In this document: piece by piece, positions 39,797-47,605 of the stretch
Position numbering within the stretch: the stretch's first letter is position 1
Layout of the letters: the number at the start of each line of letters is the position of its first letter
Assembly: GCA_016930515.1 (NCBI GenBank)
Contig: JAFGGO010000045.1
Span: forward strand, 1 to 47,605
From: Promethearchaeota archaeon
Lineage (GTDB): Archaea > Asgardarchaeota > Lokiarchaeia > Sigyniarchaeales > SOKP01
DNA length: 47,605 nucleotides
Direction of reading: 5' to 3'
The notes under the pieces: model-generated
The model's input: only the letters and a program-made list of their open reading frames with translations
Told to the model about the DNA's origin: nothing
The model's database searches: none
Made by a program: the position numbers and the translations under genes

Positions 39797-41134
39797 TTAT
39801 TTTAGAATTTCCATATAAGCACCTAATCGAGTTTTTACTTGTTCTATGTTTTCGCCTATCTTGTTAAAATTTATGTAAGTTATTGGAATTTCAAGTGTTC
39901 TTCGGACTTTTTCTCTTAACATGCTATAGCAATTTGATACTGAATGACAACCAAATAGCTGATTAAAAACCATACCGTCTACATTTAAACGCTCAGCAGT
40001 AGCTAAATACGAATCCGTAAGCGTGTTATTGTCACAACCAATCTTGCTTGTTGCGTTCGTTAAAAACTTAGCGTATTCTTGAATCGGGTCGTTATTTTTT
40101 GTAACGTTTACCTCTTCAAGAAGTCCAAATACATCCCAATCCGCGTAAATCGTTCTTGCACCCATCTCGTATAGAATATCTTGAGTTTCAGGCTCCCAAC
40201 CTCCAAACATTGGTGTTAGCATTATTCTTGGCATGTGAGATACATCCATTCCAATCCCTTTCCTCATTCTCTCTCGCATCTCTTTGACAAGATTTGCCAT
40301 ATTTTCAAGATATTGCTGGCTGTTTGAATTTAAGTCTTGGAACGAAATACTAATCAAGCTTAGAATGACGGCAAAAGTTGCAGGATTGCACGGATAAAAG
40401 TCGGAAGCACTAATTTCATACAGAATTGTTTTATAATAACGCTTGATTTGATTGCTTATTCTGAATTGTTTATTGAGGGAATTATCGGTAACATTATTTC
40501 CAGTAATTTCCTCTAAGTTTTGAATAGTTTTACGAAGTTGTTCAGCCAGTAATTCTTCTGAATTTCCAATATTTCTCGGAGGAATGTCAACCCAGAGTTG
40601 TTTAGGGACGAGTAATTTCAAGGATTCGTGATATTTGTTAAACGCACTACATCGAATGGTGAAGTACAAGCTAGCATCGACATTTTTTCCTTTTGAAACA
40701 TGCATTCCAAAAAGATTTTTAATTCCATAACAAAAATCACTTGATATCCCACTTTCAACGCCAAGATCGCACATTTCATTGTATTTAATATTAATCGATT
40801 TGATGACATCATCAAGGATTGTATCAAGGATTTTTAAAGCGTCAAATTGTTTTATAAATCCAAGTAATTTTGAAGTCAATCCCCAACCAAGAAAAGAAGA
40901 AGCTGAATTGAGCGCAACCAGGTATTGATTGAGAACAAACGATTCCATCCTTATAGGAAAAACAGGTACACCACCAGCTGCAAATACAAGATCTGAAAAG
41001 GGCAAAACGACCGAAATTAACTTCTTTTTTTCTCTAAACTTGAGTTTTTTAAGATAATCTCTACCCGATAAAAAATTATACGCCATCTTCAAGACCGAAG
41101 AAAAATTTACAACATCGTCTCCAAATGCGCTCAT
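39797..41134 (-). CDS. 2-hydroxyacyl-CoA dehydratase / benzoyl-CoA reductase-type subunit
   Basis: SDFCYG, IRC, VDGMVF....GCH, EQVKTRLGAY.E. Confidence 0.8.
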   Translation of the reverse strand: MSAFGDDVVNFSSVLKMAYNFLSGRDYLKKLKFREKKKLISVVLPFSDLVFAAGGVPVFPIRMESFVLNQYLVALNSASSFLGWGLTSKLLGFIKQFDALKILDTILDDVIKSINIKYNEMCDLGVESGISSDFCYGIKNLFGMHVSKGKNVDASLYFTIRCSAFNKYHESLKLLVPKQLWVDIPPRNIGNSEELLAEQLRKTIQNLEEITGNNVTDNSLNKQFRISNQIKRYYKTILYEISASDFYPCNPATFAVILSLISISFQDLNSNSQQYLENMANLVKEMRERMRKGIGMDVSHMPRIMLTPMFGGWEPETQDILYEMGARTIYADWDVFGLLEEVNVTKNNDPIQEYAKFLTNATSKIGCDNNTLTDSYLATAERLNVDGMVFNQLFGCHSVSNCYSMLREKVRRTLEIPITYINFNKIGENIEQVKTRLGAYMEILK

Positions 41135-42376: not shown

Positions 42377-43153
42377 TTATTTGCTTTTATTATCTTGAGC
42401 TATGAGAGCCGCACCTATAGCTCCAGTGAGTTGTGGTTGTTCTGGTGTCACGATACTAAAGCCTAATTCTTCTTCAAGATATTGCTTTACCGCAACATTT
42501 TTCGCAACTCCACCGCAAAAAACCAGTAATGGACAAACACCTATACGCTTTGCCATTCCTGCAACCCTTCGCGCAATCGATTTGTGGATACCACTCGCAA
42601 TGTCTTGTTTCGAAGTACCACGAGCAAAGAGCGATATAACCTCACTTTCAGCAAAAACAGTACAAGTAGAGCTTATTGATGCGGGAGAATTGGATTTTAA
42701 GGCCAAAGATCCTATATCCTCAATTGATACTTCCAATGCGTGTGCCATGACTTCGAGAAAACGCCCTGTTCCTGCTGCGCACTTATCGTTCATTTGAAAG
42801 TCAATGACATTGCCAGTTTTTTTTGACATTACAATCGCCTTGCTGTCTTGGCCACCAATATCTATAACCGAAGCTGCTTCAGGATAAAAGAATTGCACCC
42901 CTTTTGCGTGAGCGGTTATTTCCGTTATTCGATCGTCAGCAATATCGATGGAATTTCTTCCGTATCCAGTAGACATCACATAAACATCGCTTCTTTTGAG
43001 ATTATTTTTTTCTAAAAGATCTTTAAATAGATCTCCTCCAATTCGCTTGAAATCGTAAGTCGATCTATCAACACGATGATCGACTAGTTTTCTGCCATCC
43101 ATCAAAACAAGCTTGCTCGCTAGCGAGCCAATATCTATTCCTACGCTTAACAT
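42377..43153 (-). CDS. CoA-substrate-specific enzyme activase (HgdC/BadG-type ATP-dependent activator)
   Basis: GIDIGS, TGYGR, IDIGGQDSK, MNDKCAAGTGRFLE, STCTVFAESE, GGVAKN. Confidence 0.95.
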   Translation of the reverse strand: MLSVGIDIGSLASKLVLMDGRKLVDHRVDRSTYDFKRIGGDLFKDLLEKNNLKRSDVYVMSTGYGRNSIDIADDRITEITAHAKGVQFFYPEAASVIDIGGQDSKAIVMSKKTGNVIDFQMNDKCAAGTGRFLEVMAHALEVSIEDIGSLALKSNSPASISSTCTVFAESEVISLFARGTSKQDIASGIHKSIARRVAGMAKRIGVCPLLVFCGGVAKNVAVKQYLEEELGFSIVTPEQPQLTGAIGAALIAQDNKSK

Positions 43154-43379: not shown

Positions 43380-44125
43380 TTACCCTAAAAATATAATTAT
43401 GATCACCATGGTTAACACAAAAGCAAAAAGCATCTGTAATATATTTTTTATTATGGACTCTTTTGAAATTCTTCCAAGAAAAATCCCCAATAATACGATA
43501 GACAATACAATTATAATGAACGATACTATGAATATTATCACGCTAGCACTGGCAACTATGAAGAAAGGAATTAACGGAACTAGTCCTCCTAAAAACGGGG
43601 ATCCTCCATTTACAATGGCCACGATGATTCCCGCAAAGCTTTCAGCCTTGTGATGAAGTGTTTTTATTTTTCTTTCTTTTTTCTCCTTCTTCTGAGAAAG
43701 GGTTAGTTTTACGGGCTTCAACATTGCTTTTTCAATCTCGTTAGCTTGTAGGTCAATGTCAATTCTCTCCTCCGCTTCCTCTTCTCGTTCCACGATTCCC
43801 ATTGCTTTTTGTAAATCGGCTTCACTTTTTTTTTGTTCTGCTCTTTCGGATAAATAAGACCCAGATAAGCCAGATATGAACATTGAAATAGCCGTTCCTA
43901 ATCCAGTTAATATCACATAAGCCGAAGGTATAGTTGGTTGGGTGGGATCTTTAAGTACGACGACAAAGAATCCCAATAATATTCCTAATACTGTTAGGTT
44001 TATGGTTAATAGAGAGAATTCTCACATCAATTTCCATCGTAAAAATTATTGATAAAATACCTTCGAGCCACTGCTGAGTAATCGGTTATTTCGTTATAAA
44101 TTCTTAATTTTTTTATAAATGACAT
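43380..44125 (-). CDS. VIT1/CCC1-family (archaeal TIGR00267-like) Fe/Mn transporter, split into exon 1 (44125-44032) and exon 2 (43999-43380); 237 aa if spliced
   Basis: Exon 1 reads MSFIKKLRIYNEITDYSAVARRYFINNFYDG; exon 2 continues LTVLGILLG...AISMFISGLSGSYLSERAE...GGLVPLIPF, typical VIT1 motifs. Confidence 0.85.
44000..44031 (-). other. Putative 32-nt bulge-helix-bulge (BHB) intron in a protein-coding gene
   Basis: Central 4-bp helix ATGG/CCAT, a 3-nt AAA bulge on each strand, inner helix TTGAT/ATTAA capped by GAG-AATT-CTC, outer helix TTACG/CCTAA; canonical excision gives in-frame GAT GGA AAC CTA. Confidence 0.8.
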
Positions 44126-44305
44126 TTTTAATTAAAAATATGATGACTTTAAATTCAATTAATTTGGATAGGATAAAAATCTTATTAAAGCGGATTTTAT
44201 GTAAGACAGGTGTTATTTAAAAATTTTTATAACTTAACTCATAAAAACTATTATTTTTATTGGTCTTTTTGTATATTATATATAAAATTAAAAAATCTGT
44301 TAATA

Positions 44306-44938
44306 ATGAACAAATTCAAAGAACAATTGATAACGATGCTCATCGAGCATTCAAGGATCATTTATTCCGTTATAAGCGAAATGGGAGTATATTACTCGAA
44401 TTGGGCGGAAAATGGCCAAGAAGAAGCTGAAAACTTGGAAAAAAAGCAAAATAAAATACAATTATTGGAAGAAGACGGAGATAGCATAAAGATACGCTTG
44501 ATCAAAGAGTTTTCGGAAGCGGGAGCACAAGGACTAGGAGGATATGTGGAACTCCTTCTAAAGATGGACAACCTAGTTAATTCAGCGATAGAATTCGTTG
44601 AAGCAATTAGTCATATTAGTGCAAAAATAAATGAAGAAATTAAAAGTCGCTATCATAAGTTAATAAATACTATAATCGAAATGGCAGATGTTTTAAAAGC
44701 TACGATAAAAAGTTTAAGAGATAAACCCGAAATCGTGTTTAAAAATACGACAAAGATTCACGAAATGGAAAATAATATTGATAAAATATTTCGGGAATTT
44801 ATGAATTACATTTACGATGACAAGGCATTGGACATCAGATTGCTTCTGAGAATTCGAGATAGTATCATTATTTTAGAAGAATTGGCGGATCGAATGCATG
44901 ATATAGCCGATCTCATTCGCGTTCTCGTTTATCAATAA
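44306..44938 (+). CDS. DUF47 / PhoU-like helical-repeat protein
   Basis: IQLLEEDGDSIK...MDNL and IHEMENNIDKI...LEELADRMHDIAD repeats; ATG 44306 preferred over upstream GTG. Confidence 0.85.
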   Translation: MNKFKEQLITMLIEHSRIIYSVISEMGVYYSNWAENGQEEAENLEKKQNKIQLLEEDGDSIKIRLIKEFSEAGAQGLGGYVELLLKMDNLVNSAIEFVEAISHISAKINEEIKSRYHKLINTIIEMADVLKATIKSLRDKPEIVFKNTTKIHEMENNIDKIFREFMNYIYDDKALDIRLLLRIRDSIIILEELADRMHDIADLIRVLVYQ

Positions 44939-45117
44939 GAAGAAATTATACAATATTCTTTTTTAATGCGTTTTTTTCAAATCATAAGACATAGATTTTT
45001 TAAATTAAATTTTATGAACTTATTATGCATTTTTCTCTTATTTTTCGTAGTAACCTTTTTACGGAATTTTTTCTTTTATTTATTTAAATTACAATACTTT
45101 TAGAAAATGAAAGCATC

Positions 45118-45462
45118 ATGAATACAAAAAGAAAATTTGGAATATCGATCCTATTGCTTCAAATATTGCTAGTGGTTTTAGTTTATCTAACGGTCGATAA
45201 ATTTATTACACCCGTAGCTGCCCAAACAACCCAAACTGATTCAGGAACATCAATGGCTTTAGCCATCTCTGCTGGTTTATCAATAGGGTTATCAGCTATT
45301 GGTTCGGGCTTAGCTTTAAAGACCGTTGCTACAGCGGCCGTTTCTGCAATAACGGAACGAGAAGGTGCATTTGGAAAAATCTTAGTATTAGTAGCTTTGG
45401 CTGAAACCTTGGCGATTTATGGATTAATTGTTAGCATCTTGCTTTGGACAAAAATTCCTTGA
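45118..45462 (+). CDS. atpK: A/V-type ATP synthase proteolipid subunit K (c)
   Basis: AGLSIGLSAIGSG...LVALAETLAIYGLIVSILL; extra N-terminal hydrophobic segment. Confidence 0.92.
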   Translation: MNTKRKFGISILLLQILLVVLVYLTVDKFITPVAAQTTQTDSGTSMALAISAGLSIGLSAIGSGLALKTVATAAVSAITEREGAFGKILVLVALAETLAIYGLIVSILLWTKIP

Positions 45463-45520
45463 TCAATCTTCAAGTTAAATTAAAAACAATTAAAGAATTT
45501 ATTAGCGGGGTTTAAAGAAA

Positions 45521-46579
45521 ACGAGCATCATAATTCCAAGCTATGCCTATACTCATGTCAAGATTGGATTTTTCAAGCAATTAATCATGGATGAGACCTC
45601 GCTTTTAAAACTTCGAAAAATAAGAGATGGACAAGAATTTATTGATTTTATAAAGCCTTTTTATCCGACTTTAGAAATAAAAGATTTGATCATTGAAGAA
45701 TTAGAAAGGGCAGTTTATAATGCATATATTAAAATTATTGGTAAATTAATGCATGTCTCACCACCTAACATGCGTAATTTTCTTAGAACTTATCTTTATA
45801 AATATGAGATTTTGAATATCAAGGAAATAATTCTTGGATCTATTGTTGGAATGAGTGCTAAAGAAAAATCAAAAAATATCAATTTTTTAATAGAAGAATA
45901 CCTTGAAAATACGAAATTTATTAAAGATCTTATCAAAATTCAAAGCTTAGAAGAAATACAATTGTTTTTGAAAGGTACTAAATACGGAAAAGTTGTAAAA
46001 GAAGGCATCTTATATTACCGTAATACAAACGAAGTTTTTGTATTAGAAGCATTTTTGGATCGTTTATATTATGAGATGCTAATAACCGAAAAACTTCTCT
46101 ATAATAGAAAAGAAAGCGAAATCATTAACACATTCATCGATTTTGCAATAGAAATATATAATCTTAAAGTGATTTATCGAGGCGTTATCAATAAAATTGA
46201 TAAGAATTTATTACGTCAACTTATTGTTGGGAACTATTTTTTCTTAGATAGAGAAAAAATTGAAGTATTAATAGCACAGAAAAATATTGATGAATTTTTA
46301 AAACAATTCGAATTTTTCCTACGAAAATCGATTCATATAAAATATCTGTTAGATCAAATTAATATACGACGAGAACATTTTGTATGGTCTGTTGAGGCTT
46401 TATACTCAGAATTTATAATGAAAAAATTTCATATGAATAGAGGAGATATTGCACAATCAACGATATACAGAATAATTGAGTTGATAATAAAAAAAGAAAA
46501 AGAAATTCGATTTGCGATTCTTCCAACTGTGATTAATATCTTTCACGAAAAATACGAAAAAATGGAATCTAGAGGATAG
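45521..46579 (+). CDS. atpC: A/V-type ATP synthase subunit C (d)
   Basis: YAY-type N-terminus upstream of the first ATG (45587), KYEILNIK, GTKY, LEAFLDRLYY, EIYNLK; proposed ACG start at 45521. Confidence 0.85.
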   Translation, partial: TSIIIPSYAYTHVKIGFFKQLIMDETSLLKLRKIRDGQEFIDFIKPFYPTLEIKDLIIEELERAVYNAYIKIIGKLMHVSPPNMRNFLRTYLYKYEILNIKEIILGSIVGMSAKEKSKNINFLIEEYLENTKFIKDLIKIQSLEEIQLFLKGTKYGKVVKEGILYYRNTNEVFVLEAFLDRLYYEMLITEKLLYNRKESEIINTFIDFAIEIYNLKVIYRGVINKIDKNLLRQLIVGNYFFLDREKIEVLIAQKNIDEFLKQFEFFLRKSIHIKYLLDQINIRREHFVWSVEALYSEFIMKKFHMNRGDIAQSTIYRIIELIIKKEKEIRFAILPTVINIFHEKYEKMESRG

Positions 46580-46593
46580 AGGGATATAAAAAC

Positions 46594-46911
46594 ATGGATA
46601 TATTCAATTGGGTTGATGAAATTGAGAAAGTATATCAAGAACTAGTTGATAAAGCTAGGCTTGAAAACCAGGTAGAAATTGAGAATTATCAAAAACAACA
46701 GAAAGAGATGTTAAAAACAATACATGATAAAAACGACGAATTTATAAAATCAAATATCGATTCGCTCTTAGAAGAATTAAAACAGGGTGTGCAAATTTTT
46801 GATAATCAAATAATAAAAGCCCTTGAAGATATCAAGCAAGAATATCAAAAACAAAAAAAAATAGTGATTAATAACATTATTCATAAGCTTGGATTTGATT
46901 TTAATGGTTGA
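46594..46911 (+). CDS. Probable A-type ATP synthase peripheral-stalk subunit H/G
   Basis: 105-aa charged helical protein inside the ATP synthase operon. Confidence 0.65.
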   Translation: MDIFNWVDEIEKVYQELVDKARLENQVEIENYQKQQKEMLKTIHDKNDEFIKSNIDSLLEELKQGVQIFDNQIIKALEDIKQEYQKQKKIVINNIIHKLGFDFNG

Positions 46912-47224
46912 TCAAGAAATACACGTTATAGGAACCGACGATCTCGTCATTTTATTTGGATTAATTGGAGTTAATGGTACTATCATTAAAGAAGAATCTG
47001 AATTTTTACCACTTTTCAAGGATTTAACTGAAAGACCTTCAATAGGGATGATAATAGTTGCATTCGATTTAACTCAACAATTGGTGGAATTTATAGTAGA
47101 TTTCAAACTAAATAATAGAACTCCATTTATATACTATTTACCAGACATATTTAAACCTAATATTGAGATAAATGATGCGTTCTGGAACCATATCACGACT
47201 TCAATTAAAAAATTAATTATATAG
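46904..47224 (+). CDS. atpF: A/V-type ATP synthase subunit F
   Basis: IHVIGTDDLVILFGLIG, IGMIIV, YLPD. Confidence 0.88.
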   Translation: MVDQEIHVIGTDDLVILFGLIGVNGTIIKEESEFLPLFKDLTERPSIGMIIVAFDLTQQLVEFIVDFKLNNRTPFIYYLPDIFKPNIEINDAFWNHITTSIKKLII

Positions 47225-47237
47225 GAGGGGAGAACAC

Positions 47238-47605
47238 ATTACTGACGATAAAAATTTAAAAGAGAACTTTGGAAATCTTGGAATTTACATGATAGATCAA
47301 GCAAAAAACGAGATCAGAGAATTAAATCAAAAAACATTATTTCAAAAAGCAGAAATTAAAAAAAAATATAGAGAAGAATTAGTCCTTGATATCCAGAAAT
47401 CTCGGGATTATTTTGAAGAATATGCAAATGAAATTCTCAATAACTCCTTATCTACAACTCTTATAGAAATGAATCAAAAATTTCTTGATTTAAAATTAAA
47501 ATTAGTTAAAGAACTAAACGATAGCGTTGTTAACGAGTTAGAGAAGAAAATTAAAGAAAATTACGATAATTATATTACATTTCTTATTGATAATATAAGA
47601 AATCA
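47238..47605 (+). CDS. atpE: A/V-type ATP synthase subunit E, partial (runs off the window end)
   Basis: Open frame (I/M)TDDKNLKENFGNLGIYMIDQAKNEIRE..., long charged helix after atpF; SD GGAGGGG then ATT. Confidence 0.7.
   Translation, partial: MTDDKNLKENFGNLGIYMIDQAKNEIRELNQKTLFQKAEIKKKYREELVLDIQKSRDYFEEYANEILNNSLSTTLIEMNQKFLDLKLKLVKELNDSVVNELEKKIKENYDNYITFLIDNIRN

Follow-up and report, generated by a model that had tools for sequence, protein, structure and literature searches.

A putative endonuclease-spliced intron at a single site of VIT1/CCC1 transporter genes in Lokiarchaeia

Non-spliceosomal mRNA splicing is known in eukaryotes from the HAC1/XBP1 system, where RtcB is the ligase in animals. 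Among archaea, the closest described counterpart is the cbf5 pre-mRNA intron of Desulfurococcales and Sulfolobales (PMC2738675, which cites Watanabe 2002), and cbf5 is the only archaeal coding sequence for which splicing has been shown in the literature open to our searches (PMC7714728, PMC2738675). In Haloferax volcanii, HVO_1309 carries a bulge-helix-bulge (BHB) intron in its 5' untranslated region (PMC7714728), and many non-canonical tRNA introns are described from Asgard archaea in a preprint that makes no mention of mRNA (bioRxiv 10.64898/2026.10.13.758758); in the searchable literature, which leaves subscription journals mostly uncovered, we found no report of mRNA introns in Asgard archaea. 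Here we analyse a stretch of 47,605 nucleotides (nt) from a Promethearchaeota archaeon of the Lokiarchaeia (contig JAFGGO010000045.1, hereafter the window), in which a 32-nt insert interrupts a gene of the VIT1/CCC1 family. We conclude, with a probability of about 0.88, that the insert is a pre-mRNA intron of the cbf5 type, spliced by the endonuclease EndA and the ligase RtcB, with the splicing itself deduced from sequence comparison. Splicing of the VIT1 mRNA is very probable because in ten related copies this position is likewise interrupted, by different inserts that share the shape.

The putative VIT1 introns resemble those of cbf5 in being short (29-33 nt versus 16-44 bp) and devoid of an open reading frame, in having a relaxed BHB at their borders with the cuts between the second and third bulge bases, predicted ones in VIT1, coinciding with the exon borders, and in their variable interior, their interruption of a conserved functional motif, their lineage-specific loss and their occurrence in hosts with a heteromeric EndA. 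They differ in belonging to an Asgard lineage, in interrupting the gene of a membrane transporter instead of an RNA-modifying enzyme, in being confined to a small scattered minority of orthologues while representing one of several interrupted genes per family, and in being known here from sequence, whereas splicing of cbf5 has been shown. The HVO_1309 intron is likewise an EndA substrate within an mRNA, but it lies in an untranslated leader and breaks no reading frame. Archaeal tRNA introns are alike in size, BHB geometry and enzymes, the difference being that the VIT1 substrate would be an mRNA. In HAC1/XBP1, too, an endonuclease and a ligase take a short frame-breaking intron out of an mRNA, but through IRE1 and dual stem-loops instead of EndA and a BHB, and under the control of a signal.

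The window corresponds to contig C94 of a 4.0-Mb assembly with 35% GC and 94% completeness, designated G000; other G numbers denote genomes of the same family and L numbers individual contigs or loci. Its closest labelled homologues are mostly from Promethearchaeota/Lokiarchaeota, in agreement with a preliminary description of the window that had taken it, from the letters of the DNA, for a probable Asgard archaeon. Read without splicing, the frame opened by exon 1 runs into the TGA within the insert after 32 residues, whereas excision of positions 44031-44000 (Table 1) produces a 237-aa frame ending at 43380, with D-G-N-L-T across the junction; the bases, coordinates and frame arithmetic of the preliminary description, which had proposed exactly this 32-nt removal, were all reproduced. 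The database entry for the protein is a 198-aa fragment, and no full-length VIT1 protein of the source strain was present among the database matches. Rfam contains no family matching the insert, and a promoter scan not designed for archaea remained at background level.

Table 1. Coordinates of the interrupted VIT1/CCC1 gene, the elements of its predicted RNA fold and the neighbouring genes in the window
Feature	Position	Strand	Remarks
Exon 1	44032..44125	-	94 nt; ATG at 44125; 31 codons plus the first base, A, of split codon 32
Invariant Asp-Gly of the first transmembrane helix	Asp codon 44038-44036, Gly codon GGA 44035-44033	-	Within exon 1
Putative BHB intron	44000..44031	-	32 nt, without open reading frame; in-frame TGA at 44029-44027
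Exon 2	43380..43999	-	620 nt; final two bases of codon 32 to TAA stop; VIT1 family PF01988, E 8e-20
Central helix, 5' (exon) strand, ATGG	44034..44037	-	Folding and covariation
Central helix, 3' (intron) strand, CCAT	44002..44005	-	Folding and covariation
5' bulge, AAA	44031..44033	-	Predicted cut between 44032 and 44031; cut rule from PMC2738675
3' bulge, AAA	43999..44001	-	Predicted cut between 44000 and 43999
Intron hairpin (h')	44006..44030	-	5-bp lower stem 44030-44026/44010-44006, upper stem, 4-nt loop
Weak outer exon-exon helix, 3' strand	43994..43998	-	Pairs with 44042-44038; 4/5 pairs; folding does not predict it
DUF47/PhoU-like gene, divergent neighbour	44210..44938	+	Context; V/A-ATPase subunit genes next
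BadF/BadG/BcrA/BcrD ATPase, downstream neighbour	42377..43153	-	Also beside several interrupted and uninterrupted VIT1 copies

To locate inserts at the same position in relatives, we used a set of 135 family genomes, 93 of which contain a VIT1 orthologue at an E value of 1e-40 or better. An insert at codon 32 was found in four of these approximately 93 genomes, namely G000 (32 nt), G003 and G004 (31 nt each) and G009 (29 nt, from a different genus), most orthologues being uninterrupted, and a covariance model built from the inserts recovered the same four genomes and otherwise only intron-less junctions. Seven further inserts were found through truncated database proteins (L199, L202 and L203 with 33 nt, the first of them in three samples; L204, L206 and L210 with 30 nt; L209 with 31 nt), so that the relatives are far from all uninterrupted, which the preliminary description would have counted against its proposal: ten additional copies, from 3 genomes and 7 contigs, are broken as well. 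The resulting 11 distinct inserts, of 29, 30, 31, 32 or 33 nt, all occupy the identical bond, and in 11/11 read-through is blocked, either by a shift of frame where the length is not a multiple of three or by in-frame stops where it is. Cutting after the second base of each bulge rebuilds D-G-x-L-T in every copy, x being Met or Asn in five copies each and Ser in the remaining one, and in ten of the 11 these cuts are the borders that homology requires with the helix in register. Neither blastn nor the covariance model detected further copies of the insert elsewhere in the genome, and a dispersed mobile element (a miniature inverted-repeat transposable element or other repeat) was discarded as a candidate for want of such a second copy.

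The minimum-free-energy fold of the G000 transcript contains the central helix ATGG/CCAT, the 5' AAA bulge and the inner hairpin, with central pair probabilities of 0.75-0.97 when 12-40 nt of flank are included and of 0.4-0.47 with 80 nt. The fold energy of the insert region by itself is unremarkable (z -1.08); the geometry, defined as an all-Watson-Crick central helix with 4 inner pairs and 4/5 outer pairs, has a frequency of 1.8e-5 per random site, and the central and inner helices recur at 9e-5 in shuffles of the insert between its own flanks. The motif has the 4-bp central helix and the 3-nt bulge on each strand that characterize a BHB, together with a weak outer helix and, in L206, an irregularity described below. 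It is a relaxed BHB with a weak exon helix, because the outer exon-exon helix can be drawn but is not predicted by folding (pairing P of at most 0.11), and its second pair is mismatched in 11/11 copies. Of the fold put forward in the preliminary description, the central helix, bulge and inner hairpin thus stand, while the label "canonical" does not.

Alignment of the orthologous loci, which had been suggested as a check, yielded same-site inserts that differ in length and sequence while their BHB helices covary. Across the 11 copies 89% of the cells of the central and intron helices are paired, with 20 two-sided changes; none of 500 shuffles matched the observed covariation and slid-register controls reached 11-44% paired, counts that are not probabilities because the interrupted copies share kinship. 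The lower stem of the intron hairpin is paired in 96% of cells, with two-sided changes in four of its five pairs, and RNAalifold recovers the central and intron helices unguided, whereas the hairpin interior is not conserved. The covariation extends into the coding sequence: at the second central pair, seven copies have U-A, one has U-G and two have C-G, so that a synonymous change of the Asp codon goes along with a change in the intron, as in L209 and L210, where GAT to GAC is matched by A to G in the intron. Similarly, Gly ahead of the cut is encoded by GGA in 11/11 interrupted copies versus 18/55 uninterrupted ones.

These patterns also bear on ribosomal bypassing or frameshifting over the hairpin, which would restore the protein with the RNA left uncut and has precedents in T4 gene 60 and the byps elements of yeast mitochondria. 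In G000 the stop is preceded by AAT and the landing register holds AAC, two Asn codons separated by a stop and a hairpin, as such an event would call for. The corresponding landing-register codons in G003, G004 and G009 are CAC, AGC and ATG, so that the match is kept in G000 only of the four copies; the insert lengths span all three frames; and the covariation links the insert to upstream exon bases that a ribosome would have melted at the take-off site. We therefore regard bypassing as very unlikely.

A dead gene or an assembly error, with function taken over by an intact paralogue on contig C27, would be in keeping with the predominance of uninterrupted orthologues, with the presence of that paralogue and with the origin of the sequence from a metagenome-assembled genome. 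However, the eleven different inserts at one bond come from separate assemblies, one of them recurring in three samples, and the paralogue represents a separate family (about 38% identity) that coexists with the intact orthologue in relatives. Both exons are moreover under purifying selection: the ratio of nonsynonymous to synonymous rates (dN/dS) between interrupted copies is about 0.1-0.25 in both exons, similar to that of uninterrupted pairs, and about 0.11-0.25 for exon 1 of G000 against the other interrupted copies, so that the relaxed selection which the preliminary description named as a sign of a pseudogene was looked for and not found. Since dS exceeds 1 for most interrupted pairs, the low dN/dS indicates that the gene remained functional through long divergence while interrupted. 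This explanation is thus largely refuted already, and we give it hardly any weight. As a separate observation, two VIT1 paralogues stand in tandem in many relatives, the second one being located on contig C27 in G000.

A split gene, whose two exons would be translated separately, the first into a short peptide and the second from a start of its own, with assembly of the products in the membrane, could be read from the gene callers, which begin exon 2 at a TTG, and from the copies of the Met type, where the last intron base followed by TG makes ATG, GTG or TTG. Copies of the Asn/Ser type, G000 included, have no start codon at the junction, G003 and G004 lack one until codon 38 of exon 2, the break would fall inside a single predicted helix (residues 15-46), and the BHB covariation would be left unexplained; such an arrangement appears barely credible.

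The junction residue itself records part of the history of the intron. Met is the consensus at this position (137/210 database proteins), and 12 uninterrupted database proteins have Asn there, including one cluster that matches G011; the earlier worry that Asn after Asp-Gly might be incompatible with the family is answered, because Asn occurs in uninterrupted proteins. In the gene tree, grouping of the interrupted copies as a single clade is rejected by the approximately unbiased test; all 11 fall within one subclade of 41 rows (Shimodaira-Hasegawa-like approximate likelihood-ratio support 92), mixed with intron-less copies, and the Asn-bearing intron-less proteins on the tree, whose rows were deliberately chosen, all lie in the same subclade. 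The pair below the 3' bulge is G-C in the six Asn/Ser copies and a G-G mismatch in the five Met copies. These data suggest that the intron was probably gained once in the subclade, inside a Met codon, and then precisely lost many times, and that a later change from Met to Asn or Ser, adding a G-C pair under the 3' bulge, would persist as a scar in intron-less relatives. On this single-gene tree, repeated gain at one hot spot or favourable site may be an alternative. In the same tree, the copies of G015, G073, G093, G098 and G107, all of genus g11, group with those of genus g1 and away from other g11 rows, a placement suggesting that an intron-less allele passed from one genus to another.

The product belongs to the VIT1/CCC1 family by profile match and by fold. 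The PF01988 profile spans both exons, uninterrupted orthologues matching it from position 2-5, inside exon 1, and at least 90% of aligned rows retain the Asp-Gly at its start. In the model of an uninterrupted D-G-N orthologue (predicted local distance difference test score 81), the junction lies within the helix mentioned above, and the sole significant fold match is the vacuolar iron transporter EgVIT1 (PDB 6IU3/6IU4; Foldseek probability 1.00, template-modelling score 0.59-0.64), from which the model differs by its 20% identity and by a long charged loop. Asp43 of EgVIT1 is an essential metal ligand (PMC10794610), and we infer from profile position and fold that the exon-1 Asp would be its equivalent, an equivalence left at that strength because sequence alignments to 6IU3 begin downstream of the exon-1 Asp. 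From family and fold, the gene product is a predicted Fe/Mn transporter.

This predicted function raises the question of whether the insert serves as a regulated switch, an addition to splicing in which the efficiency of the reaction responds to metal or stress and sets transporter output, for example through the requirement of RtcB-mediated ligation for Mn2+. Such control would suit an Fe/Mn transporter, unspliced RNA yielding none of it, and a regulatory role has been proposed for the cbf5 intron (PMC2738675). Against it stand the scattering of the four interrupted family genomes among intron-less sisters, the presence of similar introns in unrelated genes and the unconserved hairpin interior, and we consider a switch unlikely. 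Most likely, the intron is a tolerated passenger at a GG-purine site, constitutively removed by the tRNA machinery.

For that machinery, G000 encodes two EndA paralogues and hence a heteromeric enzyme: the catalytic subunit is nearest to A. pernix EndA (E 6e-35) and retains the catalytic His and the extra loop, which is required for activity (PMC2724299), and the second subunit lacks the catalytic His. As heteromeric EndA cuts relaxed motifs in cbf5 pre-mRNA (PMC2738675), the G000 enzyme would by analogy be able to do so. In the proposed pathway, the last bases of exon 1 would pair in the transcript with those at the end of the insert, forming the covariation-supported 4-bp helix between two 3-nt bulges; by the known archaeal pathway, the two-subunit EndA would then cut both bulges behind their second base, leaving the exons to be joined by a ligase that is most likely RtcB. 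Codon 32 would thereby be rebuilt (A + AC, Asn) and the Asp-Gly of the first helix reconnected with the remainder of the 237-aa VIT1/CCC1 protein, while unspliced RNA would give a 32-residue peptide.

Several observations weigh against this reading. Besides the weakness of the outer helix and the relatedness of the copies, whose independence the counts overstate, the helix of L206 is out of register and in-frame splicing there requires one 4-nt bulge; the central helix ends in a mismatch in three copies; the VIT1 gene of G004 is also frame-broken in a poly-A run, as is the intron-less gene of G005; and RtcB was not found in the 94%-complete G000 assembly. The last point is likely explained by an assembly gap, because RtcB is present in 34/36 family genomes, G003 and G009 included. 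In G004 and G005 (loci L028 and L029) the frame change lies in a long poly-A run of a Lys-rich loop; these downstream breaks were rejected as introns on account of the poly-A runs, and are ascribed to assembly error or slippage.

Splicing by EndA would not be confined to VIT1. A search of the genome for other frame-broken genes with BHB inserts, as the preliminary description had advised, retrieved a PfkA-family gene and a Rab-like GTPase gene. When 789 orthologues were compared, without recourse to the motif, with 1.75 Mb from two relatives, a single intron was clearly unshared: the 31 nt inserted in the PfkA gene (contig C126, minus strand, near 40950; comparison with G028), whose central helix is GCGG/CCGC. 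The Rab-like gene came from junction-peptide matching; its insert measures 30 nt, contains stops and has TCGG/CCGA as central helix (contig C175 near 12663, plus strand). In relatives, a 29-nt insert splits the GGVGY-DINCG motif of rtcB itself (L039:434-461, L040:491-521 and L041:460-490, from G017, G034 and G021); its central helix is TTGG/CCAA, its two bulges measure 3 nt each, and its 9-bp inner stem shows compensatory variation. Also in a relative, a uppS-like prenyltransferase gene (G079:C1 near 1505071, plus strand) contains a 30-nt BHB-like insert with an in-frame stop after an Asp-Gly, the G000 orthologue (on C178) being intact. We roughly estimate a handful to a dozen mRNA introns per genome, a census that shared introns and very short first exons escape. 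Motif-first genome scans returned candidates for BHB-rescued reading frames no more often than mirror-geometry controls, with a codon-model filter that missed the VIT1 intron; a loose DNA pattern across the family gave largely background, and for introns shared between G000 and two references control matches were as numerous as real ones.

In the VIT1, Rab, PfkA, rtcB and uppS introns the central helix has an exon strand terminating in GG, like G18-G19 of tRNA D-loop introns, and a tRNA on G000 contig C172 has a D-loop intron with central helix CTGG/CCAG, the VIT1 intron of G009 likewise ending in CCAG. This likeness is a possible hint of a tRNA origin; no tRNA intron of matching sequence was found in G000.

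Other interrupted frames encountered in G000 appear to be of different kinds. A 39-nt break on contig C178 was rejected as an intron since it resembles gene fission: about 33300 nt into the minus strand of this contig, a stop codon and a new ATG divide what is a single 545-aa reading frame in G079. An RNase HII match on contig C58 (3934-4563, plus strand) has an in-frame TAA near its start, and its insert failed the BHB filter. About 3000 nt into the minus strand of contig C46, an MvhD-like gene has an in-frame TGA at the position of a Cys in its homologues, as in G079, which is probably a selenocysteine codon. Within the window, the DUF47/PhoU-like and V/A-ATPase subunit genes occupy positions 44210-47603, divergent from VIT1, and the DUF47/PhoU-like neighbour is also present in L198, L207 and L210.

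Taken together, the VIT1 inserts probably constitute a covariation-supported family of coding introns in Asgard archaea, the second after cbf5 in the searchable literature, of a kind so far confined to a single gene. Some "frameshifted" or truncated genes in Asgard genomes would then be mis-annotated, the 198-aa VIT1 fragment being an example; the 11 natural variants form a ready series of EndA substrates, and the mixture of presence and absence makes precise intron loss testable. Should splicing of the VIT1 mRNA by the tRNA machinery be condition-dependent, which we think improbable, it would represent a prokaryotic forerunner of HAC1/XBP1-type regulation in the closest relatives of eukaryotes. 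More broadly, Lokiarchaeia are likely to splice several ordinary mRNAs with EndA as a matter of routine, gaining introns and losing them precisely, and RNA structure would fix an amino-acid change at the splice junction; relatives of eukaryotes would then already splice ordinary mRNAs without a spliceosome.
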